This document shows, piece by piece, positions 39,842 through 58,300 of a stretch of 64,000 bases of DNA. The DNA is from an uncultured bacterium (GTDB taxonomy: Bacteria > Verrucomicrobiota > Verrucomicrobiia > Verrucomicrobiales > DEV007). The stretch covers positions 44,252-108,251 of the forward strand of contig CAXBMO010000021.1 of assembly GCA_963977015.1 (NCBI GenBank). Direction: 5' to 3'. The notes beneath the pieces were generated by a model, which was not told the DNA's origin, made no database searches, and saw only the letters and a list, made by a program, of their open reading frames with translations. The position numbers were made by a program, and so were the translations under genes. Positions within the stretch are counted from its first letter, which is position 1. Every line of letters begins with the position of its first letter.

Positions 39842-40408
39842 ATGAATCCACAAACCGAATCTCAGCCCTCCCTTTCTTTCCACCTGATTCCGGCTCAGGC
39901 GGGAAAGGAAGGGGGGGCGATTTCGCTTCCGAAGAGCCCGAGCTATCTCGACCCGGAGACTCTCGAAATCGGAACCGAAAAACCCGCGCCATCCCAGCGC
40001 CGCCTGACGTTTGAGCCCCACGGGCGCAACCTCCTGGTGCTGAATCCGGACCGCGTCCCGCTACGAGTCAATGACCTGAACGCGCCGCGCGTCCATCTCC
40101 TGGAAGAGGGAGACCATCTCCTGATTGGCAATCAACACCTGCTGGCCACGGCGCTCTACAACTGCCCGGAGATCGGGCCGCCTCCCAGTGCCAACATCGG
40201 CCGCGCCTGCCCGGTCTGTCGCAACACGTTCACCAGTGAGGACCGCGTTTACCACTGCGGATCTTGTGGAGGCGTTCTTCATCTCGAAGAAGGAGACAAC
40301 CCGGATGAGTCGCTTCAGTGCGCGCTATCCGTCACCCACTGTCTGACCTGCAACCATCCCATCAACCTGGAGGAAGGCTACATCACTCAAGGGATCTTCG
40401 AGCAATGA
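39842..40408 (+). CDS. Degenerate FHA-like domain + C4HC3 RING-like finger (putative E3 ligase)
   Basis: LRVND...LEEGDHLLIG (FHA C-terminal strand pattern); CPVC, CGSC, H, C, CLTC give eight potential Zn ligands; stop overlaps the E1 start (ATGA). Confidence 0.65.
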   Translation: MNPQTESQPSLSFHLIPAQAGKEGGAISLPKSPSYLDPETLEIGTEKPAPSQRRLTFEPHGRNLLVLNPDRVPLRVNDLNAPRVHLLEEGDHLLIGNQHLLATALYNCPEIGPPPSANIGRACPVCRNTFTSEDRVYHCGSCGGVLHLEEGDNPDESLQCALSVTHCLTCNHPINLEEGYITQGIFEQ

Positions 40409-41631
40409 TCGCCCAGCCAACACGCCACTTTCTGGAATGCATGCCCCCGCAAACATCCGGGCGTTTGCCGGATCGAAAGCAGCGGTTCCCCAACCTCATC
40501 GGGATGCCGGAAGGTGGACACGAAACGCTCAGCAATTTGAAAATCGCCGTGGCGGGATGTGGCGCGGTTGGAAGGACGATCGCCATTGACCTCGCCCGAC
40601 TGGGAATTGCCAGACTCTACCTGATCGACCCGAAAGCCTACAAAGAACAAAGCCTCCTCACCCAACAGATCATGCCTTCAGAGATTGGCCGTTCAAAGGC
40701 TGAGTCGACGGCGCAAGCCTGTGCCGAGATCAGCCGGGACACAGGGGTTTTCTATGCCTTGGGCCGCTTTGAGACGCTCGATCATCTCGCGCTCAAAGAC
40801 GTCGATGTGGTGATCATGGCAGGAGACAACCTCAACCTGGAATCTGCCTTGGGAGAATGGACGTCCCGTTTTCGCATTCCGCTGATCCACGCCGCCGTTC
40901 ATGGCGAAACCCTGGTCGCTCAAGTCAACGTCTACGCCAATCAAAATGCGGAGTCTCCCTGCCCATGTTGTGGATGGGGTGCCGCGGAATGGGAGCACCA
41001 CGCCAGAGAAACCACCTTTGCGTGCGACCCGGGCAACGCGGCGAGCCAGGACCAACAACCTACCATCGCCACCCAACCCACGACCTCGACACCGAGCCTC
41101 TGCGGAATCGCGGCAAACCTCGCGAGCACCCAGATGTTGCGCTACGTCCTCGGCCTTGGCCGCCCGGTCGGCGATACGTCGTTGCAATTCTGTGCCTACA
41201 CCAACGCGACCGCGACGAGTCCACTTGCCGTCTCCAAAGCCTGCCCCACCAGTCACCTCCCCTACACCCACCACGCCCTTCCAAGCCATTCCCATTACAC
41301 TCTGAACGATCTCCTCAGGGAATCCGGAAGCCTGGCGCAAGCCACCGATCCGCCAACCTTTGAAGTCGGCAACGCGGTTTGGGCGGAAGCTGGCGTTTGC
41401 AACTGTGAGGGCGCAACCACCTCCATTGCGCGATTCGTTGCCACCGACGACGCGCCCGTTCTCTGCAAGGTCTGCAATACGCCGATTCAGCTGCAACCTT
41501 TCTTCACCCATCAACAGGCATCGCTCCATCACCTCGGCGAAGCCCTCGATCTCCCGATTTCCGATCTCTGCGATTCGTCCCCCAGGTGGATCGCCATCCG
41601 CAACACCGACCACGCCATCCTCTTTTCCTAA
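40405..41631 (+). CDS. E1-like (ThiF/MoeB family) activating enzyme with Cys-rich C-terminal extension
   Basis: VAGCGAVG, IDPK, GRSKAE, AGDN, CPCC, candidate catalytic FACD, C-terminal CNC...CKVC; start ATG 40405. Confidence 0.85.
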   Translation: MIAQPTRHFLECMPPQTSGRLPDRKQRFPNLIGMPEGGHETLSNLKIAVAGCGAVGRTIAIDLARLGIARLYLIDPKAYKEQSLLTQQIMPSEIGRSKAESTAQACAEISRDTGVFYALGRFETLDHLALKDVDVVIMAGDNLNLESALGEWTSRFRIPLIHAAVHGETLVAQVNVYANQNAESPCPCCGWGAAEWEHHARETTFACDPGNAASQDQQPTIATQPTTSTPSLCGIAANLASTQMLRYVLGLGRPVGDTSLQFCAYTNATATSPLAVSKACPTSHLPYTHHALPSHSHYTLNDLLRESGSLAQATDPPTFEVGNAVWAEAGVCNCEGATTSIARFVATDDAPVLCKVCNTPIQLQPFFTHQQASLHHLGEALDLPISDLCDSSPRWIAIRNTDHAILFS

Positions 41632-41639
41632 CCTCTATC

Positions 41640-42269
41640 ATGAACACGGAACCATTTCTTCTCTCCAAACTCTCCACGTTCAAACTCGATCCGTCCCATC
41701 AACGGCTCTTTGATGATGCGATCCTGACCAACGCCGGAAACGCGATTTGGCGATCGCGAAAGAAGAACGAGATTCACGACTTTCTCGCCCTCGCCCAGGT
41801 TTCGAAACGCATCCGCATTCGGACCATCGACCTGTCCGTCGATCTCCGAATCCTGTTCGACTTCTTTTGCCCGGTCCCTACCCTTCCCCATGTAGACCAG
41901 GATCTGGTGATCCGCGACCGGGCGACGTTGGGCCTCACTTACACGGAAGACTCGGTGCGAAACTCGAAACCCGGTTACTCGTTCCTTCAGATCCTTTCGC
42001 CGTCCCAGGTTTGGCTTCCCAACGTTTCCGACGAAGAGGTTGGCATTCAAGCCCTCTGCCTTGGGGCGATTCTTCCTCCCGGCATCCTCATCAAAGAGCT
42101 GACCCTCCTCGCCTACGCGGCGTTGACGATGCAGTCCGTTCAACTTGATGCCCTGGATTCCGCCGGGGTCATGAACGGAAAATCCGCCCAGTGGTGGAAG
42201 ATCAACCAACATCGCTTCCCGTTGACTCAGGATAGCTTCATTCCCGCGTCCAAAGCTCAATCGACATAG
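41640..42269 (+). CDS. E2/UBC-like conjugating enzyme
   Basis: VWLPNV...ALCLG resembles the UBC HPN...C motif; C-terminal MNGKSAQWW...RFPL resembles the UBC (P)LNxxAA helix; directly follows E1. Confidence 0.65.
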   Translation: MNTEPFLLSKLSTFKLDPSHQRLFDDAILTNAGNAIWRSRKKNEIHDFLALAQVSKRIRIRTIDLSVDLRILFDFFCPVPTLPHVDQDLVIRDRATLGLTYTEDSVRNSKPGYSFLQILSPSQVWLPNVSDEEVGIQALCLGAILPPGILIKELTLLAYAALTMQSVQLDALDSAGVMNGKSAQWWKINQHRFPLTQDSFIPASKAQST

Positions 42270-43946: not shown

Positions 43947-44168
43947 CGATCGAATGAAGGGTTAGTGGTTTGATTGCCGTGAAGCGGAGCCCAAGTGAAG
44001 CCCAACGTCCTCACACGGTAAAAAATTACCCCCGCCGTGCGTGATTACCAGACAATTCGACAAAAAAGCCTTGTCACCATGCGCCGCTCAACGCCCCGCC
44101 GTCCCAGTCGGATCCCCCCACCGATCGAAGGGACTTGTTCGTCCCCAGTTTTCGTTGATCATAACACG

Positions 44169-45659
44169 ATGATCGAAAAAACCCTTTGCGCAACGATCCT
44201 GCTCGCGGCTCTGAGTTCGACACTTTGGGGCACCGATCACTTCCTCACGATTGCCGGCGGTTACGAGCCTTCCGGAAATCAGGTCTCTCTGGAAAAAAAC
44301 GTGGTCTTCTACCGGAACGTGCTCGCTCGGGCTGGATTTGCCGATTCGCCCCACGCAGTTTACTTCGCCAACGGCCTTTCTGAGCATCGCGATGTTCAAT
44401 ACGAGCCCAGCGAATCGCAGGTTCCCCGAGCCCACGAGCTGATGGCGAAGCTTTTCGGAACCACCGAACATCAATCGCTTTCCTATCGAAAACACAAGTT
44501 GACCAGCCTTGCCGGCGCAACGACGCCGGAAAACCTGGCAAAGTGGTTCGACGATCACGCCTCAACTTTTCAAGCCGGCGATCGCCTGATCCTCTACGCC
44601 ACCGCGCATGGCGGGAAGAGCAACGACAAGAAAGACGACGGCAACACCAGACTCTATCTCTGGAACAAGAGGACGGTGAGCGTAAGTCAGCTTCAGCCCC
44701 ATCTGGAGAAGCTCCCGGCAAAGGTCGGCGTAACCTTGATCATGGCTCAATGTTACTCGGGAGGCTTCGCCAACTCCGTGTTCAACAATGCCAATAAAGA
44801 AGGTGGCGACTTCGACCGGCCCGTGTGCGGTTTCTTTTCGACGGTGCCCAGCCGGCAAGCCGCAGGATGCACCCCGGACATTGACGAGGAAGATTACGAC
44901 GAGTTCAGCAGCCACTTCTGGGCTGCCATCCATGGTGAAACCCGCGTCGGACAACCGGTCGAATCCGCCGACTACGATGAGAACGGTGCCGTCAGTTTCG
45001 AGGAAGCCTTCGCCTACACCGTAATCACTTCGCAGAACATTGATATTCCAATTAGGACGAGCGGGGTGTACCTGCGGGCGCGCAGCAAATACCGCAAAGA
45101 CCAACCCGACAACGAGCAATTGTTCCCGCAGAAATCCGACTACGAGAGTGTGCTCGCGTTGGCGAACCCGGTCGAAGCAGCCATGCTCGAAGCCTTGTCG
45201 AGTCAGCTCAATCTCACCAACGCCCAACGCTATGCGGAGTCCGAAACCGCCGCCAACCAGATCGAAGAAAAGCGCAAGGAGTTGAAGGCTCAATCCGACG
45301 AGAAGAAAAAGCGGATCGAACAACTGAAAAAGACCCTGCAGCGCCGCGCCCGCAACCAGTGGCCTGAGCTTTCGAACATCCTAAGCCCAACGGCCGTGCG
45401 ATTGCTGACCGAACAAGCCGAAGCATTCATCGCCTTCGTCGAGTCTCAACCGGAGTTCGCGGAATGGGTAGCGCTGCAATCCGAGCGCGACGCCATCGAG
45501 GAAGAACGTTTCGTCCTGGAAAAAGAATGGGCCAAGCACATCCGCTTCCTGAGAACCCACAACAACGTGATTTTGGCGAAGAACCTGGTCACGCTGGCCG
45601 ATCAAGATTCCATCGCACGTTACCACGCCCTCGTCGATGCCGAGCGAAAAGCGCTTTGA
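44169..45659 (+). CDS. Secreted clan CD cysteine peptidase (C13/caspase-like) with C-terminal coiled coil
   Basis: LYATAHGG (His) and MAQCYSGGF (Cys) dyad; signal peptide; start ATG 44169. Confidence 0.75.
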   Translation: MIEKTLCATILLAALSSTLWGTDHFLTIAGGYEPSGNQVSLEKNVVFYRNVLARAGFADSPHAVYFANGLSEHRDVQYEPSESQVPRAHELMAKLFGTTEHQSLSYRKHKLTSLAGATTPENLAKWFDDHASTFQAGDRLILYATAHGGKSNDKKDDGNTRLYLWNKRTVSVSQLQPHLEKLPAKVGVTLIMAQCYSGGFANSVFNNANKEGGDFDRPVCGFFSTVPSRQAAGCTPDIDEEDYDEFSSHFWAAIHGETRVGQPVESADYDENGAVSFEEAFAYTVITSQNIDIPIRTSGVYLRARSKYRKDQPDNEQLFPQKSDYESVLALANPVEAAMLEALSSQLNLTNAQRYAESETAANQIEEKRKELKAQSDEKKKRIEQLKKTLQRRARNQWPELSNILSPTAVRLLTEQAEAFIAFVESQPEFAEWVALQSERDAIEEERFVLEKEWAKHIRFLRTHNNVILAKNLVTLADQDSIARYHALVDAERKAL

Positions 45660-45683
45660 TCCATTCCGCCGCCCGCCCCCGCA

Positions 45684-47342
45684 ATGTGCATCTTCCGAAT
45701 CCACGTATTTCTCGCGTATTGCTTGCTCGCTCCGCCTCTTTTTTGCGGCGCCGAACGTCTGCCGAACGGAATCGAGCTTCAGGAACCGTGGCCGCCATAT
45801 CGGGAGGCGAAGGAGGTCCTATCCGGCGAACCGATGCCGGTTGCCTACCTGACAACCCCGCCCGGCATCATCCCGATTGACCTCGGACGCCAGTTGCTGG
45901 TCGACGACTTTCTGATTCAATCCAGCACCTTGAAGCGAACGTTTCATCGTCCGGATTATCACCCCTCAAATCCCGTGTTCCGTCCTGAGAAGGCGTGGGA
46001 GAAGACCAAGGATCGCGCGTTTGCCGCGCCCTACAGCGATGGCGTTTGGTATGATCCAGACGAGAAGATCTTCAAGATGTGGTATCGAGCAGAAACCGGT
46101 TGGACTTGCTTGGCGACATCACCCGACGGGCTTTGTTGGGAACGCCCGGCGCTGGAGCAACTGCCCGGTGCCAACGCTTTGTATCGGTCGAATCGGGACG
46201 CCGTTTCCGTTTGGTTGGACCATGGCGCCGGCGATCCGTCGCGCCGATTCGTAGCATTCGAGGCAAGCTGGATCAAACCCGCGCACCGGCTCCACCTGCG
46301 CTACTCACCGGACGGTCGACAATGGACGGCCCCGCTGGCCATCTCCGGCCCGTCTTGGGATCGTTCTTCCGTTTTCTGGAATCCCTTTCGCAACGTCTGG
46401 GTCGCGAGTGTTCGCGGGCACGACCGGATGAAACCCGATCCCGTTCACCGGTCTCGAAACTACCACGAAGGCGCAACTCCCGAGGCCGTGCTCGCATGGA
46501 CCGAACACACCGATGAGGTTGCCCAAGGCAAAGACGCGTCTGGCGGTCTGCAGCCATGGGTCGCCGCCGACCGTCTTGACCCGCGCCATCCCGACCCGCG
46601 ATTTCGCAACAACGACCCCCAACTCTACAACCTCGACGTCTTCCCATATGAGAGCCTACTTGTTGGACTGTTCACGATCTGGCAGGGCCCGGACAACGCG
46701 ACCTGTAAAGACCTCGGCATCCACAAGCGAAACGAGGTTCTTGTCGGATTCACGCGAGACGGATTTCATTGGGACCGGACCAACCGCAAACCGTTTCTGC
46801 CCGTCAGCGATGTTTCCAAAGCGTGGAATGCCGGCAATGTTCAGTCGGTTTGCGGCGGCTGCGTGATCGTCGGCGACCTCCTTTATTTTTATTGCTCAGG
46901 CAGGACGATGGATCCGTCCGACATCACCTCCACCGGCCTCGCGACGTTACGTCGAGACGGTTTCGCCTCGCTCGATGCGAATGGAGACGGCGGCGTCATG
47001 ACCACACGACCGCTTACCTTTACCGGGAAACACCTCTTCGTGAATCTGGCAGCTGCAGACGGTGAGTTGCGTGTCGAAGCTTTGGATCAAACCGGCAGCG
47101 TGATCGCACCGTTTACCCTGGAAAATGGTCAACCCATCTCCGGCGACGCAGCCGCAATCCCAGTGAAATGGAAAGGCATAACCGATCTATCTCAGCTCAC
47201 CGGCATCCCCGTTCGCTTTCGGTTTACACTGAAGAACGGCGCCCTGTATTCGTTCTGGGTTAGCCCCAATGAAGCTGGAGCGAGCACCGGCTACGTCGCC
47301 GCTGGCGGCCCCGGATTCGGCAGTGATCACGACATCCCGTAA
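45684..47342 (+). CDS. Secreted glycoside hydrolase-like five-bladed beta-propeller (GH32/43-like)
   Basis: RQLLVDD, FKMWY, Asp-box-like SPDGLCW/SPDGRQW/TRDGFHW, LRRDGFASL, LYSFW. Confidence 0.75.
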   Translation: MCIFRIHVFLAYCLLAPPLFCGAERLPNGIELQEPWPPYREAKEVLSGEPMPVAYLTTPPGIIPIDLGRQLLVDDFLIQSSTLKRTFHRPDYHPSNPVFRPEKAWEKTKDRAFAAPYSDGVWYDPDEKIFKMWYRAETGWTCLATSPDGLCWERPALEQLPGANALYRSNRDAVSVWLDHGAGDPSRRFVAFEASWIKPAHRLHLRYSPDGRQWTAPLAISGPSWDRSSVFWNPFRNVWVASVRGHDRMKPDPVHRSRNYHEGATPEAVLAWTEHTDEVAQGKDASGGLQPWVAADRLDPRHPDPRFRNNDPQLYNLDVFPYESLLVGLFTIWQGPDNATCKDLGIHKRNEVLVGFTRDGFHWDRTNRKPFLPVSDVSKAWNAGNVQSVCGGCVIVGDLLYFYCSGRTMDPSDITSTGLATLRRDGFASLDANGDGGVMTTRPLTFTGKHLFVNLAAADGELRVEALDQTGSVIAPFTLENGQPISGDAAAIPVKWKGITDLSQLTGIPVRFRFTLKNGALYSFWVSPNEAGASTGYVAAGGPGFGSDHDIP

Positions 47343-47623
47343 CGGACCCTTTTTTCCAGGACGAAACTGGCCGAGCGCGAGCGCTTTTGATTTCCCGGTT
47401 CTCCAATCCATGAGGCAATTGGTTTACGAATGAATCGCCGAAGGACATTGGGGACAGCCATTTGTTTGCGTCGTTGATAGGTTTTGAAGACCTGCCCGGT
47501 TCGCGTTCACCACACTTGGCAAGCCTTCTATGCAGGGAAGATCAATAACTTCAGAAAACTTCCCTCGCTCACAAATACGCCATTTCGGTGTGCTCTATTG
47601 CTGAACGTTCCACCCACCAGAAC

Positions 47624-48439
47624 ATGGCAACGACCGCACAAGCCCCCCACCCACTAACCGAAGCAGCGCGCAGAACGCGGACGCTCGAGGCGGTTGGTTT
47701 CAAGAAAAGCGGGAATGATTTCAAGAAAGGCAGAACCAGTTTTTCCAACCGAAAAGGCTGGCTCACCCTCCGCTCCACGTTTCCGAAAACCGCCGAGCCG
47801 ACCGAAGGGAAACTTGGAAAACCGGGGCTTTGGAAGAAGACCCCAACAACCCCGGCCAAACAGCATTTCACCCTGCCGGAAACCATTCTAGCGAACAACC
47901 GCGCCGCGTCGCCCGACGACGACGATCCAACCCTGCGGGCATGTGTGGACTGGGCGCTGGCGACCCGAAACGGGAGACCACCGAAAGCCCCACAATTGCC
48001 ATCCGCCGAAGACGTCGAGAACTGGCTCGGTTCCAGAACCATCCAAATTGGTGACATCGTTCGCCAGATCGAAGTCAATCATCTTGAAAGCCAGTTTTCC
48101 CTGCGGGTGACGATCGTCAACGACATCCCCAGGGAACGCACCCCCGGCACCGAGTGGCTTGCCGGCCTGATCGAAGACGCCCAGGAACAATGGAAACTGG
48201 CCAGAATCGAATTCACCAACCAGGACGATGACCACGATGTGGCGATCGCCGAAATCGACCTCACCGGAGCCCCATCCCCCATCCTCGAATCACTTTTCCT
48301 AACCAGTGTGGACACCCTCAGATGGATTGCCGCCTCACTGGTTCCCACGGCAGAGTTCCTGGTTGGCAACGACGCAAAGTCGTCGCCAGCCCTGAGCGAA
48401 ACCACCATCCAGGGTCAGCAATCCTCAACCAACATCTAA
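47624..48439 (+). CDS. Hypothetical protein, first gene of the second Ubl block
   Basis: Co-oriented ORF ending 12 nt before Ubl1; start ATG 47624; no confident family. Confidence 0.65.
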   Translation: MATTAQAPHPLTEAARRTRTLEAVGFKKSGNDFKKGRTSFSNRKGWLTLRSTFPKTAEPTEGKLGKPGLWKKTPTTPAKQHFTLPETILANNRAASPDDDDPTLRACVDWALATRNGRPPKAPQLPSAEDVENWLGSRTIQIGDIVRQIEVNHLESQFSLRVTIVNDIPRERTPGTEWLAGLIEDAQEQWKLARIEFTNQDDDHDVAIAEIDLTGAPSPILESLFLTSVDTLRWIAASLVPTAEFLVGNDAKSSPALSETTIQGQQSSTNI

Positions 48440-48451
48440 ATACAAAACGTT

Positions 48452-48778
48452 ATGGTTACTGCAACAGAACCGTCCCCGACAACGGACGCCAAGCCCCGGC
48501 AAGGCGGATCCGCTGATCTTGGGGGCAACGACAGGTTTAGCCTGACTGCGATTGATGTGACCGGCAGCCACGAGTTGGAAGCGCCGAGCATTGATCGAAG
48601 CACCCCTGCGGGTGCAGTCGCGAACGCTTTTGCGAATCGCATGGACTTGCCAACCAACGTCCCTTGGGGACTCCGGAACGATGAGACCGCCGCTTATCTC
48701 TCAGACGATGAGCCAATCGGCGATCAAATTGAAACGGGTGCCCGAGTCGTTGTGACTCCGAAAAGTCACCTCGGCTAA
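48452..48778 (+). CDS. Ubiquitin-like beta-grasp protein Ubl1 (C-terminal Gly)
   Basis: ~80-aa core with strand-strand-helix-strand pattern (FSLTAIDVTG, AGAVANAFANRMDLP, YLSDDEPIG, GARVVVTP) ending KSHLG-stop; context of E1/E2/JAB. Confidence 0.72.
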   Translation: MVTATEPSPTTDAKPRQGGSADLGGNDRFSLTAIDVTGSHELEAPSIDRSTPAGAVANAFANRMDLPTNVPWGLRNDETAAYLSDDEPIGDQIETGARVVVTPKSHLG

Positions 48779-48859: not shown

Positions 48860-48914
48860 GTGTGCGGGAGGCACACAGAAACCGCCTCCTTGCGCTGGGT
48901 GGAGCGCAAGGAGG
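48860..48914. other. Two tandem GC-rich hairpins between Ubl1 and JAB1
   Basis: GTGTGC-GGGAG-GCACAC (48860-48876) and 12-bp stem CCTCCTTGCGCT-GGGTGG-AGCGCAAGGAGG (48885-48914); no U-tract. Confidence 0.6.
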
Positions 48915-48961
48915 ATTGGCCGGGCCCAAAACAGAAATCCAACCACGAAACAATCACCCCC

Positions 48962-50095
48962 ATGAAACAAGCTGTTCCAACATCACCAACTCCCAAGACC
49001 TCGGAACCCGGCCTCACCCTGGTTATCCGAAGCGAGGATGACGGTGTGCTTCTCGCCCGGGAAGCGGTGCGTGAAGAAGACTTCACCGAAGCCAAGACCG
49101 AGGCGTTTCGCGAGCTGTTTCTTCGTCAAGGCATCCTCGAGGTTTCCCTTGCAGACCTTCCGGTTCGCCTCCGTGCAATCCCCGTCAAGGATGGCCCGCC
49201 AAATCGCTGCCGTGGTTACGCCTTTGAAAAAACCGTTTCAGCCGGTTCTGGAAAGAAGCGCACGGTTTTCACCATGAACAGCCTTGAGCGCGTCGCGACG
49301 CGGGTCGGTAATCGGCTCCTGGAATCCGGAGCGCTCGAGTCCGGCGAGGATTTCGTCTTTGAACTGGAGTCCGGAGCCCCCACCGCTCAAGCCGCACCCG
49401 ATCCCTTTGCGGATATACTCGGACCGACCATTCGAAAGTCAGAGATGCACTTTCTCCAGGCCGAACTTTCTCCGCTTCTCCAGAACGCCCGGAGCGTGAA
49501 CGAAGCGGATCCTGATGTCTTTCCGGTTTTCTATACTGAGGAAGCCGTTCAACAGGCTGAAGCCCATAGCCGCAAGGGTTCGCCGGCTGATCCGAATTAC
49601 GAAAGCGGAGCCATCCTGGCCGGACCGATCTGCTCGTGTCCCGTTAGCGGAGAATTTTTCATCGTGGTATGCAAAGTCCAGGAAGTGACCGAGGCCGACC
49701 AAACCCTGGTCTCCTTGGAGTATTCCGGCGAAAGCTGGGCCCGGATTCAGAAGAACATCCGCAAAGAACAAACCGAGAACCCGGCCATCCGAATTCTTGG
49801 CCAGGCCCACGGCCACAACTTTCTGCCAAACAACGGCGAAACCTGCGCGGATTGCCCGACCAAACCGGTCTGCGATGTCGACAACCTGTTTGTCAGTTCC
49901 GACGACAAGAACTGGACCCGGGCGGTGTTCAGCCAACAACCCTGGCAGCTCTGCCACATCTTTGGCCTGACCGCCCGCAACGATAGAATCAACGCCCTCT
50001 TCAGCCTCCACGACGCACGGCTGATCCGCAGAGGTTATCACATCATTCCCGACTTTGACGCCACCGCCCACCCCACGATCTCCGTTCTCCAATAA
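48962..50095 (+). CDS. JAB/MPN-like metallopeptidase (JAB1) with N-terminal extra domain and Cys-rich insert
   Basis: YESGAILAG (Glu), ILGQAHGH (HxH), FVSSDD (SxxD); CADCPTKPVC between HxH and SxxD; start ATG 48962. Confidence 0.72.
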   Translation: MKQAVPTSPTPKTSEPGLTLVIRSEDDGVLLAREAVREEDFTEAKTEAFRELFLRQGILEVSLADLPVRLRAIPVKDGPPNRCRGYAFEKTVSAGSGKKRTVFTMNSLERVATRVGNRLLESGALESGEDFVFELESGAPTAQAAPDPFADILGPTIRKSEMHFLQAELSPLLQNARSVNEADPDVFPVFYTEEAVQQAEAHSRKGSPADPNYESGAILAGPICSCPVSGEFFIVVCKVQEVTEADQTLVSLEYSGESWARIQKNIRKEQTENPAIRILGQAHGHNFLPNNGETCADCPTKPVCDVDNLFVSSDDKNWTRAVFSQQPWQLCHIFGLTARNDRINALFSLHDARLIRRGYHIIPDFDATAHPTISVLQ

Positions 50096-50138: not shown

Positions 50139-51893
50139 ATGAAAGCTAATCAACCCAAGGAAAAAGCGGACTCCGTCGCCACGATGCTGGCAGATCCTGA
50201 GTTCCCAGTCGAGGAACGCCGAAAGTTCCTCCAAATGATCGTGCAATCCAACGATGAGTCGGCTCTCAATGCCGTTATCGAAGGGCTCGAAGGAAAGAAA
50301 GGCGGCGACGTCTACGCGAAACGCATCAAGAAGCTCGAGGCGATCATGAAAGAGCTTGAAGAAGGCCCGCAACGCCCCGCGATGTTCATTGCCATGACCC
50401 CGGCAGCAGACGAAAGGATCCAATACGCCCAGGTGATGCTGGATGATGGCAATCAAGCCTACAGCGTCGTCCCCGACCCTGAGCTTGCCAAGTCGCTGAA
50501 ACTTGGCGACCCCATTGTGATGGATGGTCGCGGTCGCGCAATATTGCGTCGAGGCGCCCACAACCTGGGGATTGGCGAAGAAGCGAAGTTGGAGCGCGTG
50601 ATCGACGAACGCCGAGTCGAAGTCTCGATGCGCGGCCAGGAACGATTCGTCTTCTTTGCATCCTCGAAAATCGCGGATCAACTCAAGAACGACGAGCTCG
50701 AAGCAGGTTCGATGCTCGTCGTCAACCCACGCCAGTTCATGGTCTTTGATTCGATCCCCAAAGTCGATGGGCTTTCCCACTTTCAATATCTGGAGCGGCG
50801 TCCGGTTTCCAAAGTCGTCGTCGACCGCGACATCGGAGATCCGCCACCCATCATTGAGAAGATCACCCAGTTCGTTCGCGCGGAGATGATCGCCCCTGAA
50901 GTGCAGCGGCGTTATCAGTTGAACCGCTGCCTGACGACGCTTCTCGACGGCGTTCCCGGCTCCGGCAAGACCCTCGCGATCGCCGGAATCGAACGGAAGA
51001 TCTACGAAGTGATGAGCGAAGTCACCGACGTTCCCATCGATGAACTCCCTCCCCGGGTCTTCCGCCTTCAGATGAGCCGAATCCTCAACATGTATCTCGG
51101 CGAAAGCGATCGAAACCTGGAACGCTTCTTCACGGAAGTCGAGCAGATGGCTGCGGAACCCTTTGTTTGTCCGGATGGACGCGAGATCCAGCTTCCCGTC
51201 ATCGCGGTGCTGGAAGAGATCGACGGTCTGGCTCGTCATCGGGGTCAGGATTCCATTCACGATCGAATCCTCACGACCGCCCTCCAGAACCTCGATACGG
51301 CCCGTCCTGAACTGAAGGAGAACCTCATCATTTACTTGGGCACAACGAACGAGATTCAGCAGGTCGACGGTGCGTTTCTCCGCCGGATCGGCGCAACGGT
51401 CGAACGTTTTGGCCGACTGAAGCGCAGCGGCTTTGAAGCCGTGCTCGAAAAGCAGATTGATGGTTTGCCGATCATCCCGTTGAACGGCAGCCGCGATCCC
51501 AAGACGATCGAAAAGGCAACGATCAACGCGATCACCTCCTGGCTCTACTCGCCGAACGGATCGGACAAAGGCCTGGTTGAGCTCACGTTCACGGGTTCCT
51601 CCAATCCTGAGATTCGCTACCGTCGCGACTTCGTCACCGGTGCTCTGGTCAATCGTGCGGTTCAGCAGGCCAGCATCGAAGCCAGCCAGGCAGAACATCG
51701 CGGCACGGAAGAGTGCGGCATTTCCTGTGAACTTCTCGTTCGCGAGATCGACCGCCAAATCCGGACGCTCGCCGATCAACTCACCGAATACAACGCCCAC
51801 AAATACGTGGACGTGCCTGACGCAACCCGCGTGGCCAGCGTTCGCCGGCTGCATCAACCCCATCACTTCCCCCTTCAACTCCAGGCTCACTAG
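50139..51893 (+). CDS. ARC/Mpa-like proteasomal-type AAA+ ATPase
   Basis: N-terminal coiled coil then two OB-like segments; GVPGSGKT, pore loop ILNMYLGESDR, Walker B VLEEID, GTTN, DGAFLRR, and the ARC-like YRRDFVTGALV segment. Confidence 0.85.
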   Translation: MKANQPKEKADSVATMLADPEFPVEERRKFLQMIVQSNDESALNAVIEGLEGKKGGDVYAKRIKKLEAIMKELEEGPQRPAMFIAMTPAADERIQYAQVMLDDGNQAYSVVPDPELAKSLKLGDPIVMDGRGRAILRRGAHNLGIGEEAKLERVIDERRVEVSMRGQERFVFFASSKIADQLKNDELEAGSMLVVNPRQFMVFDSIPKVDGLSHFQYLERRPVSKVVVDRDIGDPPPIIEKITQFVRAEMIAPEVQRRYQLNRCLTTLLDGVPGSGKTLAIAGIERKIYEVMSEVTDVPIDELPPRVFRLQMSRILNMYLGESDRNLERFFTEVEQMAAEPFVCPDGREIQLPVIAVLEEIDGLARHRGQDSIHDRILTTALQNLDTARPELKENLIIYLGTTNEIQQVDGAFLRRIGATVERFGRLKRSGFEAVLEKQIDGLPIIPLNGSRDPKTIEKATINAITSWLYSPNGSDKGLVELTFTGSSNPEIRYRRDFVTGALVNRAVQQASIEASQAEHRGTEECGISCELLVREIDRQIRTLADQLTEYNAHKYVDVPDATRVASVRRLHQPHHFPLQLQAH

Positions 51894-51941: not shown

Positions 51942-52253
51942 ATGATTCAAGAACAAACACGACCCACCGTCGAAGCAGGACCAAGCGGAGGCGGAATCGA
52001 CAACTTCTACAACCAGGACGGCAGCCCGGGGATGGCCAACATCCTCGCCGGACCTTATGGTGAAAATGTTCCCGTAGCCGGAATGACCGTTGGTGAAATT
52101 CGGGCGCGTTTTCGCGACCGCTTCGACATTGACCCGCAGTCCCAGGCCGTGATCGACGGCAACGATGTCAGCGATGACGAAGTCGTGAACGAAGGCCAAA
52201 CCCTGATGTTTACCTATCGGGCTGGCGAGAAAGGCGCCGGACTCCCCTCATGA
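51942..52253 (+). CDS. Ubiquitin-like protein Ubl2 with GEKG motif and short C-terminal extension
   Basis: GMTVGEIRARF, AVIDGNDV, NEGQTLMF beta-grasp pattern, then RAGEKG-AGLPS; stop overlaps the E2 start (ATGA). Confidence 0.8.
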   Translation: MIQEQTRPTVEAGPSGGGIDNFYNQDGSPGMANILAGPYGENVPVAGMTVGEIRARFRDRFDIDPQSQAVIDGNDVSDDEVVNEGQTLMFTYRAGEKGAGLPS

Positions 52254-53149
52254 GCCAGCTCCACATTGAAGGCGACGAGATCCTGGCGGTATCCCCGGAA
52301 GGAAAGCAGGAAAGCATGAAGCTGGAGGTCCTCTTCGAGCGCGTTGCCCGCTCGCAGATGGACACCGGCGACCTGCTTCTGCCCGACGGAATGAAGGCCG
52401 TTCGCTCGGAAGGAAACTCCACCGTGATGGTGCATCAAAGTCCACCCCGCGTCCACAAGCTGAGGTGGATCACCAAGGACTCTCCGGCGCGATTCGGGAC
52501 GGGCTGCACTTATCGCGATGTCACGATCAGCCTTCCTTATCTTGTGGTCCTGGCGGTCTATACCAGAACGCCCGAAGGCTTCACGACGTTATCGAAGCTG
52601 AACGAATGCTTTTTCACCAACAAGAGCCTTTCCTCGCTGAACGATCCACTCTTCTACCCAGCGCTTCTCAACTGCAGTAAATTCGAACCGCCGGAACGAA
52701 AGCCGTTGAGTTGGATTTGCACCCAGCACCTCGACCGCGCCTTCGATGCCGAACCCGACAGCAACCTTCGGATGCGGAAAGGATTCATCGCCCTGATGCG
52801 CTGCCTTCTCGAAGCCGGGTTCAACTACTCCAGTGAAGAACACGAGGCTTCCAGTTGGTATACGGAATCCGCGACCGTCGATCCGCGCATTGCCGACATC
52901 GACGAATGGCAGAAGGCGACAAAGAAGGATCCTCTCTTTGTGCTCGACCTCAACTGGCTTCCCACCAACCACTCGGTCGGTGAAGTCATTCAACGCATCT
53001 TCGCCAACCAAGGCGCAAAGAGCCCCAAGTTTAACAACGCCAAGGCGATCGAACGCCTGGTATTCACTCACAAACGTCAGCAACTCCGCCGTCGCCTGCT
53101 CGCCGAAAAAGCAGAGCAACAGGAAATGACGGGTTTGCTCGAATTCTAG
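52250..53149 (+). CDS. Prokaryotic E2-like protein (E2 family D / PRTRC protein B-like)
   Basis: SLPYLVVL, PLFYPALLN...SWICT candidate catalytic Cys; sits between Ubl and JAB. Confidence 0.68.
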   Translation: MSQLHIEGDEILAVSPEGKQESMKLEVLFERVARSQMDTGDLLLPDGMKAVRSEGNSTVMVHQSPPRVHKLRWITKDSPARFGTGCTYRDVTISLPYLVVLAVYTRTPEGFTTLSKLNECFFTNKSLSSLNDPLFYPALLNCSKFEPPERKPLSWICTQHLDRAFDAEPDSNLRMRKGFIALMRCLLEAGFNYSSEEHEASSWYTESATVDPRIADIDEWQKATKKDPLFVLDLNWLPTNHSVGEVIQRIFANQGAKSPKFNNAKAIERLVFTHKRQQLRRRLLAEKAEQQEMTGLLEF

Positions 53150-53164
53150 AACCGAAACATCCTC

Positions 53165-53929
53165 ATGAAAGTTTCTGACCATCATCTCGTCACCCCACTC
53201 TATCTCAAGATGTCGAAGGACATGCCCTGGCCCAAAGAGGAGAGCGCGTTCTACCTTCTCAGCAGCGACGGACTCTTCATGTGCCGGAACAATCCGTTTT
53301 TTCGCAGCAGTGTCCCGGTTCGCGATTGGCCGGCGGAGTTGGCCGCGCACCAGCCGTCGATTCGGCTTAGCTATCCTAGGATCCCTCAGGCGTTGTTCGA
53401 GAAGCTGATTGGATTCTTTGCCATCATTGGAGAACGCCACGGTGCAGAGGCAGCCGCATTGCTCGCCTGGAATCGCTCGACCAAGGAGGTCGAAGCCATC
53501 GTCCCTCCCCAGGAGGCAACGGTCAGCAAATCATGGGGAGGACGTCCCTACCCCATCGACGTCAGCTACGATGTTCCACCGCTCGATCCCAATCTGGTTC
53601 TGATTGGCGACATCCACAGCCACGTCGATGGCCCCGCCTATACGTCCAAGACCGATGCGGACGACGAAGCGCATCGCCCCGGGATTCACATTGTGATTGG
53701 ACGCATTTTTACCGATCCACCGGAGATCCACATCGAAGCCACGGTCGATGGTAGCCGGTTTCGGGTCGAAGAGATCGAGCACGTGATCGAGGGATACGAC
53801 GCGCGTCGAACCAGTGAAGTGCCTTCCGAATGGATCGAGCAAGTAGAAGTGAAAGACTGGTATTCCAGCTACTCATCTCAGAGCACGTATTACTCCAGCG
53901 AATACGGAACCTCCACCTCCTATCCTTAA
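53165..53929 (+). CDS. JAB/MPN metallopeptidase (JAB2; PRTRC protein A-like)
   Basis: YLLSSDGLF N-terminal segment, AEAAALLAW (Glu), GDIHSH...TSKTDADDE (HxH-x7-SxxD). Confidence 0.88.
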   Translation: MKVSDHHLVTPLYLKMSKDMPWPKEESAFYLLSSDGLFMCRNNPFFRSSVPVRDWPAELAAHQPSIRLSYPRIPQALFEKLIGFFAIIGERHGAEAAALLAWNRSTKEVEAIVPPQEATVSKSWGGRPYPIDVSYDVPPLDPNLVLIGDIHSHVDGPAYTSKTDADDEAHRPGIHIVIGRIFTDPPEIHIEATVDGSRFRVEEIEHVIEGYDARRTSEVPSEWIEQVEVKDWYSSYSSQSTYYSSEYGTSTSYP

Positions 53930-53939
53930 TCTCCGATTG

Positions 53940-54716
53940 ATGAAACTCGCAAAAGACCAACTCCTTCAACCATCGCTGCCAGATGGTTCCTCCATCAAGA
54001 TCGTCGGCCTGGGCGGCGTCGGCAGTATTGTCGCCCGCTATCTCTCCGTCTTTCTTGCCTCTCTCAAGATCGATCTTCGTCTCGTGCTGATCGATGGCGA
54101 CGAGTTCGAGAGCTCCAATGCTTCCCGCATGCTGTTTGGCTGTCATGGCAACAAGGCATCCGTCATTTGTGATGAGTTGATGCCGTATCTCGAAGACTCG
54201 CAGTTGTCCCTCGATTCAATCGAGGAATATATTACACCGGACAACCTGCCAACCCTTCTCCATGAGGGAGACATGATCTTTCTGACGGTGGATAATCACG
54301 CCACCCGGAAGTTGATCAACGACTATTGCACCAGCGAGCTTCAGAACTTCTGTGTGATCTCTGGTGGGAACGACGGCGTCGAAGCGCTGCCAGACGGCAA
54401 GGTGCGTCGCGGAACTTTTGGCAACGCCCAGATTTTCGCGCGCCGCGAGGGTCGGGACGTGACGCCCAATCTGGTGCGCTTTCATCCTGAGATCGCCAAC
54501 CCCGGGGACAAGCTTCCCACGGACCAGAACTGCACCGAACTCATCGCCTCGGTTCCCCAGATCCTCTTCGCCAACCTGGCCGTCGCGTCCGCCATCCTGA
54601 ACACCTTCTGGCTCCATGTTTGCGGATCGACCCACTACAGTGAGGTCTCCTTCGACATCGCGGAAGGCCTGATGCGCCCCATCCCTCTTCCGAAGTTGGA
54701 ACCGGCTCCAGCCTAA
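53940..54716 (+). CDS. E1-like ThiF family adenylyltransferase (minimal)
   Basis: VGLGGVG, IDGDEFESSNASR, GNKA, TVDNHATR, SGGN, candidate catalytic QNCTE; no CxxC Zn pairs. Confidence 0.88.
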   Translation: MKLAKDQLLQPSLPDGSSIKIVGLGGVGSIVARYLSVFLASLKIDLRLVLIDGDEFESSNASRMLFGCHGNKASVICDELMPYLEDSQLSLDSIEEYITPDNLPTLLHEGDMIFLTVDNHATRKLINDYCTSELQNFCVISGGNDGVEALPDGKVRRGTFGNAQIFARREGRDVTPNLVRFHPEIANPGDKLPTDQNCTELIASVPQILFANLAVASAILNTFWLHVCGSTHYSEVSFDIAEGLMRPIPLPKLEPAPA

Positions 54717-55219
54717 CCCTCCAACGGCACAATCTTCACCTTCTTGCCGGAGCTGGCGGCTCCGCCCAGGCTTTGCAACAAGGTTGGCCCGGTCGGGGCC
54801 TCGGCAGCCGGCATTGCCGCCGCATTTTCGCCTTCGCCGTCGGATTTCTCCGCTTCCAGCGCCTCACGAAGCGCCCCCTCCACCATCTGGCCACAGTGAA
54901 TTTTCATCGGCGGCAAGGCCCCGAGCGGCTTCGTCATCTCGGCAGCACCGAGATGCTGCGCTTCTTCAATCGTTTTCCCCGCCAGCATCTCCGTCGCCAT
55001 ACTTGCCACCGCAATCGCGGTCTGGCAGCCAAAACTCTGGAACGATGCCCGATCGATCACCTTTTTCCCATCCTTCTCCCCAAACTTCAGCCACATCCTC
55101 ACCATGTCACCGCATTCCGGATTCCCCACGGTTCCCACGGAATCCGCATCCGTCATTTCCCCCATATTCTGAGGATTGGCGATCGCTTCCTGGATTTTGT
55201 CTTCAAAGGCATCGGACAT
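54713..55219 (-). CDS. IscU/NifU-N-like Fe-S scaffold protein
   Basis: NPQNMG, GNPECGD, FGCQTAIA, KIHC (three Cys); convergent with E1, 4-nt overlap. Confidence 0.88.
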   Translation of the reverse strand: MSDAFEDKIQEAIANPQNMGEMTDADSVGTVGNPECGDMVRMWLKFGEKDGKKVIDRASFQSFGCQTAIAVASMATEMLAGKTIEEAQHLGAAEMTKPLGALPPMKIHCGQMVEGALREALEAEKSDGEGENAAAMPAAEAPTGPTLLQSLGGAASSGKKVKIVPLEG

Positions 55220-55346: not shown

Positions 55347-58300
55347 ATGACAGGAGACGAGTTGAAAAAGTTGGAACCGATGGAGCGTGCTCAAGCGCTC
55401 ATCCGGGAGGAAATGGAGCTGAAAACCGGCACACTGGATTTAGGGAGTATCGGAATTACCGAATTGCCCGTTGAACTCTGGGGCAAAGGTTGGACCCGGC
55501 AACATAACTTGAAACATGTTACCCACCTCAGCCTCGGCTCGTCAGACGATCGTTCCATTGCGCCAAACAACTTCACGACCAAGCAATTCCCCCTCTTTGA
55601 TCGGAAATGGCGAAAACTCTCCTCGTTGGTCTCGCTGTCCCTCGAACGCTCATTTCCAGAGGCGGCGCAAGACTTTGGCATCATGATGTTTGGGGCATCC
55701 GAGCCCAGGAATCAGCATCGATTTTCGGCCGTGCCTTCTCTTCCGGGAAAACTCAAACACCTGGTACTGACGGCGGATTTCGCTCCGGAAGACATCGACA
55801 TGTTGGAGTTCTTGACCAAGCTGGAATACTTGCGCATTTCCAGCCACGAGGTCATCGGTCTCCGGCCCCTGGCCAAATTGAAGTCTCTTCGTGTTCTTGA
55901 TTTGGCAATTTGCCCGAGCATTGCCAACCTTGCCCCTCTATCCAAGCTCAAATCACTCCAGGCCTTAAAACTAAAATCCTGTGGCAGAGTCTCTGATCTT
56001 ACCCCCTTGGCAAAACTCAAAAGTCTCCAGGCACTGGATCTGGAGAAGTGCGAAGGCATTGTGGATCTATCTCCGTTGACGAAACGCCGTGCCCTTCAAA
56101 ATCTCAATCTAACGAATTGTAAAAGCCTCACCGATTTTCGCCCGTTGGCCGCGCTCACCCAATTGCAAATTCTGAATTTGAAGGGGAACCAATCGTTCGA
56201 AGACACTGAGATCTTGCGCTCCCTGCGACACTTGTCGCAGCTTGATTTGCAAAAGACCTCCGTCACCAATTTGACCGGCCTGAGCAGCCTGGCAAAGTTA
56301 CAGGACTTGAATCTGGCTGATTCACAAGTGGTCAACTTGGCCCCTTTGTCCGGACTTCTGCACCTGCAATCGTTGAATCTCAGCAACTGCAAGGTGCAGG
56401 ATCTTTCGCCCCTCACTCAATTGCCCAACCTTCGGGTCTTGGATCTACAGAATTGTGATCATATCCAGGATTTCTCGCCACTTGAGAAAATCCCCGGATT
56501 GGAGATCAAGAATTTGTCCAATCAAAAAGGCGCGTCTCCTCCATCCCTGCCAAAAGGTAGCGCCGTCAAGTCATTGGAACTTGAGGAATGTACGCAGAGT
56601 GAGATTGATGCCTTGGCGGAGATGACCGAGTTGGAAACCCTTCTCATCGACGAATGTGAGGACATCGAAGATTTTTCAGCCCTGGCAAATTTGACCAACC
56701 TCAAAACGTTGGAACTTGGCAGTTGTGGCATTCGGGATCTCGAACCGCTTGGAGCGTTAACACAGTTGGAAGAACTTCACATTTCGTCATGCGAGAATGC
56801 CTCGGACGCCACGCCATTGGCGCGCCTTCCTTCCTTAAAGAAACTCAATATTCATTTCTGTAAGATACAATGTGTCACGCTTACTGAGTCGCCAATGCTC
56901 GAAGAGCTGGACCTCAGTGACAGTGGGACCTTGGAGAAAGTAGAACTCGCAGGTCTAAGCAATCTCCACGATCTCGATTTAAAGTGCTGTGAGCAACTCG
57001 CTTCTGTTCGAATCGTTGATTGTCCAGAATTGAAAACGATAGCTCTCAATGATAAGCCCAAGCTTGAGAAGCTCGAGATTTCAGGATTGCCGACCCTTGA
57101 GGCCTTTGAACTGGAGACTCCCCAAAATTTTGACCTGCGTCCCCTTGCGAATTGTTCATTGCTTCGGGAATTGAAACTCGTTGGGACGTCAGAACCACCT
57201 GACGTCAGTTGGCTACTTACTCCACCTTCTCCAGAGGAACCGCCTTTAATCTTACGCGACTCGTTCAAATGGTTGCAGATCGCGAAAACTTCCGATCCGG
57301 AAATCCCCAATTCGCTTCTCTCTCGAATGGATCAATACGATGTCTATGACAATTGCTTGGACCGTCTTCGAAGTTATCTCAAGGATAGGGGTGAAGCAGA
57401 ATCAACCTCCGTTGCTTATCGCGATTTAAGGTTCGTCGTCTTGGGGAATTCAGGAGTTGGAAAAACCCAAATCTGCAACCGGCTTCAGGGCCTCGCATTC
57501 GACGAAAATGGGAAACCGACCAACGGGATGGTCATCTCGGATTTTCATCTGGATGAAAGCAAGGGATTGGATGTCCGGGACTTTGGAGCCGATGCGCTGC
57601 GTAATCGCCTCTATGCGCCGTTCATCAAAAATCACACCGTAATTATATTGGTTTGGGAAGATTCGGAGACAGCGACTGGAGAAGACGGTTTCCATCAACC
57701 TCTTACTCATTGGCTTCAGGAGCTTGCCCTGTTGGGTGAAGATATCTTCTGCCCAATCATTGTCTGCCAAAACAAAGTTGAAGATCCTGCCAACGCCAAT
57801 CCGGATCTAATCCCTTCCGAACTGAAAAACACCTTCAAGCCGGACCAAGTGACGGTTGTTCAGTGCAGCGCCCGGGAGAACCACCTCGACGCGTTGAACG
57901 AGGCGATTGACGCGCAATGGACAAAGCTGGGGATGCACAAAATGGGATCCGCCACGGCGTATGCGATCAAGGAATTCAAAGCCCTTCGAAAAAGCGATAG
58001 CGAGCTTCCTGCGGAGGAACGAAAGTTCCGGTTACTCGGCAGTTCAGAATTCGCCGAAGTGATTCAGAAGGCGCAGAGCAACGGCAATGGTACGTTATCC
58101 GACAACGGAGCGGGTTTAGCGCTTAGTTTGGTGGAAAGCGGATTTTTCGAAGGCCGGCACAATGTGTGGAACCGATCATTCATTTTGGATTCGACACTTC
58201 TTACGGATGCAATGGCGGCGATTGTGAACCGCGCATCACCACATGCCGAATCAATCCGCACCGAGGACGGAATTGTGAGTGATGAAGCTATCAAGACCAA

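Follow-up and report, generated by a model that had tools for sequence, protein, structure and literature searches.

The ATPase P0001 is encoded at positions 50139..51893 (+ strand) of a 64,000-nucleotide stretch of contig CAXBMO010000021.1, hereafter the window, from an uncultured bacterium of the Verrucomicrobiales (GenBank assembly GCA_963977015.1). It is an ARC/Mpa-like AAA+ protein encoded by an open reading frame (ORF) of 584 amino acids (aa), assigned using Pfam, NCBIfam, profile and alignment comparisons, and it is the fixed centre of an 11-gene cassette for conjugation of ubiquitin-like proteins (Ubls). The core of this cassette consists of a beta-grasp Ubl with a GEKG end (Ubl-B), an E2-like protein, a JAB metallopeptidase, an E1 and the AAA protein, to which a RING-like protein, another E1, an HPN-type E2, a second Ubl with an HLG end (Ubl-A) and a second JAB are usually added. 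The combination of a bacterial Ubl conjugation operon with an ARC-type unfoldase, two known kinds of system, appears to be new. We lean, at little better than even confidence, towards an unfoldase that works without a proteasome on proteins carrying the GEKG Ubl mark, with a probable role in conflicts between phages and their hosts.

A preliminary description of this DNA had proposed the layout of a coiled coil, two OB domains and an AAA module, and our comparisons bear this out. The protein begins with a helical region and a short coiled coil, continues with two OB domains and the AAA module, and finishes with a C-terminal domain. Pfam identified AAA at residues 268-419 (55.7 bits) and the C-terminal OB domain of proteasomal ATPases at residues 149-207 (28.5 bits, cut-off 23). 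A family profile (n=36) searched against PDB matched the Mpa/ARC structures 7px9, 7ljf and 5kwa at E 7e-49 to 8e-49, aligning positions 59-571 with Mpa residues 78-587, a span that runs from the last part of the coiled coil through both OB domains and the AAA module into the C-terminal domain. VAT/Cdc48/p97 matched the profile at 1e-39 or weaker and over the AAA module only. The top NCBIfam model is pup_AAA (TIGR03689) with 102.6 bits, below its equivalog cut-off of 504.75; the scores of the CDC48 and PAN models are 29-32 bits. The short coiled coil has 4-3-4-3 hydrophobic spacing (Y59, I63, L66, M70 and L73, by eye from the sequence) and is followed by a nearly invariant G76-P77; it is preceded by an extra conserved, helical-looking region (residues 1-55).

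The ATPase is not a chance ORF, since it has 132 matches at E<=0.001 among 7999 scored candidates from a collection of 5.8 billion proteins and 124 representative clusters match it at E<=1e-30 in an exhaustive search of representatives. The matches in the collection are nearly all 575-630 aa long, and those that are named come from Verrucomicrobiota, Planctomycetota and one deltaproteobacterium.

Linkage to ubiquitin-like genes and absence of proteasome genes

The ATPase had been described as embedded among beta-grasp Ubls, a setting that extends well beyond the window. We searched 65 metagenome loci (L005-L069; some are near-duplicates and the counts are not independent) by tblastn with the proteins of the window neighbours. 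Ubl-B was found adjoining the ATPase in 42 of the 44 loci with at least 1.5 kb of DNA downstream of the ATPase, as was the E2-like gene (42 of 44), and E2-like, JAB and E1 genes were found together in 28 of the 29 loci with at least 3.6 kb. On the upstream side, the second JAB is present in 27 of the 29 loci with at least 1.4 kb, and the second JAB, Ubl-A, a conserved 283-aa gene, E2 and E1 in 14 of the 15 loci with at least 5.6 kb; the RING-like gene stands outside this last count and occurs wherever the DNA of these loci extends far enough. A shorter, five-gene form (Ubl-B, ATPase, E2-like, E1 and JAB) occurs in L051-L053 and L067. The upstream trio of the window (39842-42269) is parted from the rest of the cassette by three unrelated genes (42297-47342), a split seen only in the window genome, and the cassette is contiguous in 14 of the 15 metagenome loci with enough upstream DNA. 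Start and stop codons overlap as ATGA at 40405 (RING-like/E1) and 52250 (Ubl-B/E2-like), which would fit co-translation. No additional conserved gene was found in the cassette flanks, where Pfam annotations of 105 ORFs from 19 loci are miscellaneous, mostly housekeeping or unassigned; thus, the cassette is self-contained and holds no chambered protease.

The five-gene core is also present in a complete phage genome of 45,377 bp (G401 from IMG/VR; L070, L103-L105), which has direct terminal repeats according to IMG/VR and is 100% complete according to CheckV. Its genes are ordered Ubl (with an AEKG-GR end), E2-like, JAB, E1 and ATPase and lie near terminase and portal genes; the ATPase relative has 38% identity. 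The E1 gene of this phage runs across the 123-bp terminal repeat, and its genome yielded no tyrosine integrase. A tblastn comparison with deposited phage genomes returned no match at 1e-10 with the ATPase, at 1e-5 with the E2-like protein or at 1e-8 with the E1. At the structure level, five phage proteins in BFVD match the E2-like model at E<=0.001. The only plasmid match to the ATPase was a true actinobacterial arc gene with 24.6% identity.

Among 400 other sampled genomes of the phylum, one (G200) encodes a homologue of the ATPase at E<=1e-30, and a contig scan with the ATPase protein gave a single match, a contig of a metagenome-assembled genome that is 90% identical. The sporadic occurrence (1 of 400 other genomes), the spread over several phyla, the variable flanks and the phage copy point to a conflict system, and the cassette is probably horizontally mobile. 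A defence-island setting was not seen: the 105 flank ORFs of the 19 loci include just one DNA methylase, one Fic protein and one integrase, each an isolated case. PADLOC recognised no known defence system in the cassette. The GC content of the window is not unusual, and the window contains no tRNA.

At least four divergent lineages (P0116/P0269, P0121, P0209 and P0224; fused loci L053 and L067) encode Ubl-B and the ATPase as one in-frame fusion protein, in which the Ubl occupies the N-terminus and GEKG is retained where the two parts meet. At L053:4645-6639 the Ubl-B homologue continues into the ATPase, giving P0269 (665 aa), and the same join is found at L067:9650-11700. The ATPase of L067 carries later frameshifts, which an assembly error or decay could explain. 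GEKG is located at residue 90-94, ahead of the ATPase part, in five of the 11 collected proteins of at least 620 aa, namely P0116, P0121, P0209, P0224 and P0269. P0224 and P0209 lie on distant branches, with 29-30% identity to P0001, and match the Ubl-B profile in hhalign with probabilities of 98.65% and 98.63%, respectively (E 5e-16 to 6e-16). Because these fusions from distant clades match the Ubl-B profile, the link between the GEKG Ubl and the ATPase clade is old and tight. A search for longer fused forms (1023-2920 aa) returned none at E<=1e-20, which is weak evidence by the tool's own rating.

Through the fusions, the ATPase becomes a first 'substrate' for the JAB peptidase, and this would suit an ATPase that serves the conjugation machinery, whether in Ubl maturation or activation (for instance if it unfolded the Ubl~ATPase precursor so that JAB could cleave it), in E1-E2 remodelling, or as a regulated target of the Ubl itself. 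Type II CBASS, which conjugates its effector enzyme (PMC11601596 and PMC10097602, in the parts available), offers a precedent. We consider this explanation rather improbable. Ubl and ATPase are separate genes in most loci, the Mpa-like OB ring with pore loops is the layout of a substrate translocase, and related systems of Ubl, E2, JAB and E1, such as Bil, work without an ATPase according to the available part of PMC11601596.

The preliminary description had noted that prcA/prcB, pafA, dop and pup are missing from the window, and this absence extends to the whole genome (G000; 6.89 Mb, 95.26% complete), in which PF00227 (20S alpha/beta and HslV), PF03136 (PafA/Dop) and PF05639 (Pup) have no match. 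PF00227 is likewise unmatched in G200, the only other carrier among the sampled genomes of the phylum. Ten genomes of the phylum with near-ARC genes (413-467 bits) served as positive controls, and the five of these that were tested by the same searches all encode 20S alpha/beta pairs and two Pup-ligase genes, one of which adjoins the ARC gene in all five. The 20S genes are found at the ARC locus, within a few kb, in G132 and G279 and on another contig in the other three. The genome search for 20S and HslV genes, proposed earlier as a check, is therefore in agreement with the claimed independence from a proteasome.

ARC/Mpa docks on the 20S core by its HbYX/GQYL tail. The ATPase ends in ...PLQLQAH without a penultimate Tyr, exactly as first described, and a hydrophobic-Tyr-X (HbYX) C-terminus is found in none of its 107 full-length homologues, among which a single protein (P0050, with a T-Y-D end) has a penultimate Tyr. 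The tail is absent, but its absence is not diagnostic. The ARC orthologues of Verrucomicrobia (L091-L098; G300, G174, G048, G132, G093, G111, G279 and G039), which score 456-467 bits against TIGR03689 and so fall slightly short of the cut-off, have ..SGVI or ..SAVV at the C-terminus in place of GQYL. The HbYX tail is not universal among proteasome-linked ARCs, and since five verrucomicrobial ARCs in 20S-bearing genomes do without it, a missing HbYX alone is weak evidence.

In place of HbYX, a C-terminal element of the type RVAxVRRxPQPxxLPxELQR is shared by most of the 105 listed C-termini; 100 of the 107 homologues have an 'RVxxVRR'-like element within their last 40 residues. Through its LPxELQR tail, a Ubl-directed unfoldase could hand its substrates to an unlinked protease (ClpP, Lon, FtsH or another chamber) for degradation. 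Consistent with such a hand-off, ClpP is encoded elsewhere in the window genome, and the ARCs of the phylum indicate that docking motifs can differ. However, the partner unfoldases of ClpP use IGF-type loops, there is no conserved protease gene in or beside the cassette (19 loci), a PF00227 protease was found in neither genome tested (G000 and G200), and no chambered protease was recognised among the inspected parts of the phage genome that carries the five-gene core. We therefore assign the hand-off only a small share of the probability.

Motifs and phylogeny of the ATPase family

The Walker A motif of the ATPase is GVPGSGKT, and a Walker A motif is present in all 107 full-length homologues. 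Its Walker B motif reads VIAVLEEID (hhhhEE, not hhhhDE), confirming the LEEID reported at the outset. A regular expression detected the EE form in 105 of the 107 homologues and failed to match the other two; both E359 and E360 are present in every one of the 36 aligned members. K277, N404 (sensor-1), R415, R416 and G321 of the pore loop are also invariant in this 36-sequence alignment. The pore loop is aromatic-hydrophobic-Gly in 22 of 23 family rows, and the arginine-finger segment reads 'LRRIG', the canonical 'RPGR' being absent. The features of a classic-clade AAA+ translocase, namely the Walker A Lys, the sensor-1 Asn, the arginine finger(s) and the aromatic-hydrophobic-Gly pore loop 1, are thus present. 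Because the Walker A Lys, EE, sensor-1, the Arg pair and the pore-loop Gly are conserved, these motifs look like those of a functioning translocase rather than of a gene in decay.

A quick maximum-likelihood tree was computed from 48 AAA-domain rows and two FtsH outgroup rows, with PAN and archaeal Cdc48 outside the sample. The ATPase family forms one clade (SH-aLRT 98), which is nested in a long-branched superclade with more distant relatives (support 100). The phylogeny with ARC, PAN and Cdc48 suggested in the preliminary description was thereby answered in part: the family holds together, while its place relative to ARC and the Cdc48-like sequences falls in a polytomy. The superclade is marked by EE Walker B in 36 of 37 rows and by a shortened arginine-finger segment of the form 'R-R-[ILF]-GG'. 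All 11 ARC, near-ARC and Cdc48-like rows have DE at Walker B, and nine of the 11 have RPGR or RSGR. The LEEID Walker B therefore appears to be a signature of the clade rather than a defect. TIGR03689 scores of the scanned family relatives are 45-128 bits, with two 'near-ARC' outliers at 290-295 bits.

The replacement of the Mg-coordinating Asp and the shortened arginine-finger region might suggest a catalytically dead AAA scaffold. Dead enzymes usually lose catalytic motifs, whereas here EE is kept in nearly all family members and wider-clade rows, and the Walker A Lys, the sensor-1 Asn, two Arg and the pore-loop Gly are invariant at 28-75% identity; we regard a dead scaffold as very unlikely. 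Least probable of all is that the protein is a conventional ARC with its 20S and Pup partners at other sites or in the 5% of the genome missing from the assembly: its layout is ARC-like, pup_AAA is its best family match and the genome is 95.26% complete, but its score is far below the equivalog cut-off, PF00227, PF03136 and PF05639 are unmatched in G000 and PF00227 in G200, true ARC loci of the phylum keep a Pup ligase beside ARC (with 20S within a few kb in G132 and G279), and the ATPase is flanked by Ubl-system genes in nearly every locus.

The genes of the two conjugation modules

Module 2 lies directly downstream of the ATPase and contains the core genes. Ubl-B (51942..52253, + strand) consists of a disordered N-terminal tail of about 30 residues, which begins with a conserved MxExxRP (20 orthologues), a beta-grasp core and an invariant ...GEKG, behind which orthologues carry 0-21 variable residues and the window copy five. 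The core of its AlphaFold model (pLDDT 89-95) is a beta-grasp fold. All 50 matches listed by Foldseek against PDB are ubiquitin, NEDD8, SUMO, Ubl domains or sulfur carriers, the best at E 2.5e-3 and none at or below 0.001, and a profile search of PDB gave only ubiquitin chains at E of about 1. Complex prediction with two copies of ATPase residues 1-215 and Ubl-B gave run scores of 0.46, 0.00 and 0.00, which weigh neither for nor against binding.

The start codon of the E2-like gene (52250..53149, +; 299 aa) overlaps the stop codon of Ubl-B. The protein has an invariant Cys157 (23 orthologues), and its AlphaFold model has a pLDDT of 87.3. Using VIA-align, we found BubB (Z 5.0) and the E2 domain of Cap2 (Z 4.9) as its best structure matches, together with many UBC/UEV folds at Z 3.5-4.3, all of them weak and below the level that the tool calls reliable. 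Foldseek against PDB gave no match, and the best hit of a PDB profile search was at E 0.71. From the weak structure scores and the invariant Cys157, we read the 299-aa protein as a putative divergent E2.

Next is a JAB/MPN+ metallopeptidase (53165..53929, +; 254 aa; PRTRC_A-like) with a Pfam Prok-JAB score of 39.3 bits, in which E95, H151-x-H153 and S161-x-x-D164 are invariant (18 orthologues). It is likely to be the processing and deconjugating enzyme for Ubl-B. The module ends with an E1-like adenylating enzyme of the ThiF family (53937..54716, +; 259 aa; PRTRC-ThiF-like; Pfam ThiF 56.7 bits), in which G24xGGxG29, D53-G-D55, D119-N-H and C199 are invariant (18 orthologues).

The eukaryote-like module 1 starts with the 188-aa RING-like protein (39842..40408, +), a putative E3, which has an FHA-like N-terminal half and a C-terminal zinc-finger pattern of the C4HC3 type. 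C123, C126, C139, C142, H147, C160, C167 and C170 are invariant (14 orthologues), and the putative RING assignment follows from this motif pattern; PADLOC families gave no match to the protein. The E1-like enzyme of this module (40318..41631, +; 437 aa; ThiF family, Pfam ThiF 82.8 bits) likely starts at the ATG at 40405 and is matched by E1-E2 models of PADLOC with E down to 1.2e-12. It is followed by the UBC-like E2 (41586..42269, +; 227 aa), which has no Pfam match and contains a 'VWHPNV' consensus and then an invariant C158 in 'LCLG' (15 orthologues), which we take to be the HPN-Cys signature of UBC E2 enzymes. The three genes that split the window cassette at this point encode a TPR protein (minus strand) and proteins of 540 and 552 aa with hydrophobic N-termini.

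The conserved 283-aa cassette protein (47588..48439, +) is syntenic between E2 and Ubl-A and has no family match. Weak leads to YbjN/TY-Chap in the ESM Atlas (feature score 0.85, TM 0.35-0.41) suggest that it may be a chaperone-like peptide binder of the YbjN/CesT type, which could act as a substrate adaptor. Ubl-A (48452..48778, +; 108 aa) is ubiquitin-like, with an invariant ...HLG end. H106, L107 and G108 are kept in all 17 orthologues, ten of which end at the Gly and seven of which have a tail of 2-8 residues. A profile search of PDB with Ubl-A gave nothing, and ESM Atlas models, as a lead only, resemble YukD and ubiquitin clusters (TM 0.59-0.70). Both Ubls have the conserved C-terminal Gly and variable tail expected of modifiers, the fold of Ubl-A coming from the Atlas leads only, and hhalign detected no sequence kinship between the two (probability 0.2%).

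The second JAB/MPN+ metallopeptidase (48860..50095, +; 411 aa, likely start 48959) occupies the position just upstream of the ATPase. Its N-terminal domain, some 170 aa in length, has no assigned family, and in 17 orthologues the protein keeps E215, H284-x-H286 and S313-x-x-D316 as well as a Cys-rich insert with invariant C299 and C305 and a nearly invariant C296. Pfam gave no match to this protein, and the best hit of a PDB profile search (E 0.055) was a ribosomal protein. Catalytic residues are retained in both JABs and in both E1s of the cassette.

Downstream of the cassette, a NifU-like iron-sulfur scaffold gene on the minus strand (54713-55219) abuts the last cassette gene and is probably unrelated. 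It is followed at 55347-58826 by a gene for a 1159-aa protein with leucine-rich repeats and then a Roc/Ras-like GTPase domain (ROCO-type).

Proposed function and related systems

In the mechanism that we propose, JAB would trim the variable tail of Ubl-B, or cut the Ubl~ATPase junction, right after GEKG and so expose the terminal Gly. The E1 (Cys199) would then adenylate Ubl-B and pass it to the E2-like protein (Cys157) for attachment to target proteins. An ARC-like ATPase hexamer would recognise the Ubl-B mark, the disordered tail of about 30 residues at the N-terminus of Ubl-B threading through the OB ring and the aromatic pore loops as in Mpa, which takes up Pup. The marked protein would next be unfolded or extracted, and a JAB peptidase would recycle the Ubl. 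Because neither the cassette nor the genome encodes a peptidase chamber of the 20S/HslV type, the output is likely to be unfolding or disassembly, as by a segregase, and not coupled degradation. In the 11-gene form, the second cascade (RING-like E3, E1, HPN-type E2, Ubl-A and JAB) may feed or regulate the same motor.

Several points weigh against a proteasome-independent unfoldase of this kind. Fusion and synteny give a functional link without a direction, so the conjugation machinery might be acted on by the ATPase or, conversely, might target it, and the conserved C-terminal tail could dock an unlinked protease, ClpP being present. In the motor itself, Walker B has Glu in place of the Mg-coordinating Asp of AAA proteins, and the second region of homology is without the usual 'PGR'. 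ARC, Cdc48-like D1 and D2 and the ATPase clade form a polytomy in the tree, and the E2-like assignment comes from structural scores of Z 5.0 at most. ATPase activity, substrates, hexamer formation, Ubl binding and conjugation are all features that we infer.

A more elaborate picture, which we offer tentatively, is that of a bacterial and phage 'ubiquitin-segregase' in which two separate Ubl cascades, a eukaryote-like one with a RING E3 and a PRTRC/Bil-like one, converge on an ARC-like motor with an Rpn11-like JAB, so as to tag and mechanically dismantle particular proteins, for example virion or defence components, in phage-host conflict, with the disordered N-terminus of the Ubl as the threading handle. 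It is equally tentative to view such a system as a proteasome lid and base without the core, whose tag combines the roles of ubiquitin and Pup.

Among known systems, Mpa/ARC (TIGR03689; 5kwa, 7px9 and 7ljf) has the same domain order and aligns end to end with the ATPase, which likely also recognises a small conjugated tag with a disordered end. The ATPase differs from it in being only about 25% identical to a named arc gene, with a score (102.6 bits) well short of the equivalog cut-off, in its EE Walker B, shortened arginine-finger segment, extra N-terminal region and other tail, and in its position beside genes for a beta-grasp Ubl, E1, E2-like protein and JAB and never beside pup, pafA/dop or prcAB.

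With Bil (BilABCD), type II CBASS (Cap2/Cap3) and Bub (6E/DUF6527), the cassette shares a Ubl with a C-terminal Gly, an E2, a JAB-type peptidase and an E1, as well as a sparse distribution; BubB and the E2 domain of Cap2 are the top matches of the E2-like model. According to PMC11601596, both Bil and type II CBASS defend against phages. In contrast to our cassette, none of these systems is described with an AAA+ unfoldase in this preprint on Bub, which mentions AAA only in a reference and lists no such operon in its introduction. The only match to a PADLOC Bil model is BilD for the E1 (E 0.005), with none for Ubl, E2-like protein or JAB at E<=0.01, and the Ubl of the cassette is distinct in its long disordered N-terminal tail and its GEKG end. 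PRTRC_A (TIGR03735) is the only NCBIfam match of the module-2 JAB, and PRTRC_ThiF (TIGR03736) is among the matches of the module-2 E1, below the ThiF, MoeB and UbaA models. However, both stay far under the respective cut-offs (47.5 against 101.8 bits for JAB and 30.4 against 144.75 bits for E1), and no ParB domain was found in the ten cassette proteins scanned with Pfam (all except the RING-like protein).

The content of Ubl, E2-like protein, JAB and E1 resembles gene neighbourhoods described by Iyer, Burroughs and Aravind in 2006 (PMC1779556), a paper in which 'AAA' occurs 0 times and no AAA link is made. A Ubl-conjugation system coupled to a Pup-conjugation system was described for Planctomycetes and Thermofonsia in a single sentence by Kaur et al. 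(2020, eLife; PMC7159879) and likewise joins a eukaryote-like Ubl cascade to a tagging module related to proteasomal ATPases; the second module here is instead beta-grasp Ubl/E2-like/JAB/E1 and not Pup/PafA/Dop. The Ubl, E1, HPN-Cys E2, small RING and JAB of the Caldiarchaeum/Prok-RING-type Ub operon are all present, RING and E2 by motif pattern. The full-text literature searched gave no account of a cassette with a beta-grasp Ubl and an ARC-like ATPase; Burroughs et al. 2011 (Mol BioSyst) and the 2012 Burroughs reviews are outside that search and may bear on its novelty.

The likeness to the 26S proteasome (Rpt ring and Rpn11) and Cdc48/p97 lies in a beta-grasp Ubl mark and a classic-clade AAA ring with OB-domain or N-domain entry, and the gene for the JAB/MPN+ peptidase neighbours that of the motor, just as Rpn11 is seated on the Rpt ring. 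Unfolding of ubiquitinated proteins by Cdc48 likewise proceeds without an attached protease. We treat this resemblance as a functional analogy only, without implying descent from or towards the eukaryotic machinery, and the AAA domain of the ATPase is not grouped with Cdc48-like sequences in the tree. The evolutionary interest raised in the preliminary description concerned the coupling of ubiquitin and proteasome; the 11-gene cassette and the five-gene core of the phage point to phage-host conflict at least as much as an ancestry of that coupling.

Until now, bacterial tagging of the ubiquitin type has been associated with effects exerted directly by the tag (Bil, CBASS and Bub), and ATP-driven unfolding of tagged bacterial proteins is known only for the unrelated Pup tag with the proteasome. 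If our reading is correct, the cassette would represent a third arrangement, Ubl-directed unfolding without degradation, in proteasome-less genomes and in a phage. It would allow the reading of ubiquitin-like marks by Cdc48 and the 19S particle to be modelled in a simple prokaryotic setting, and it would give a testable case for whether tag and unfoldase became coupled before a protease chamber joined them. Experiments could draw on the natural Ubl~ATPase fusions and on the five-gene version of the phage as compact constructs, and the system may be a new kind of weapon between phages and hosts.

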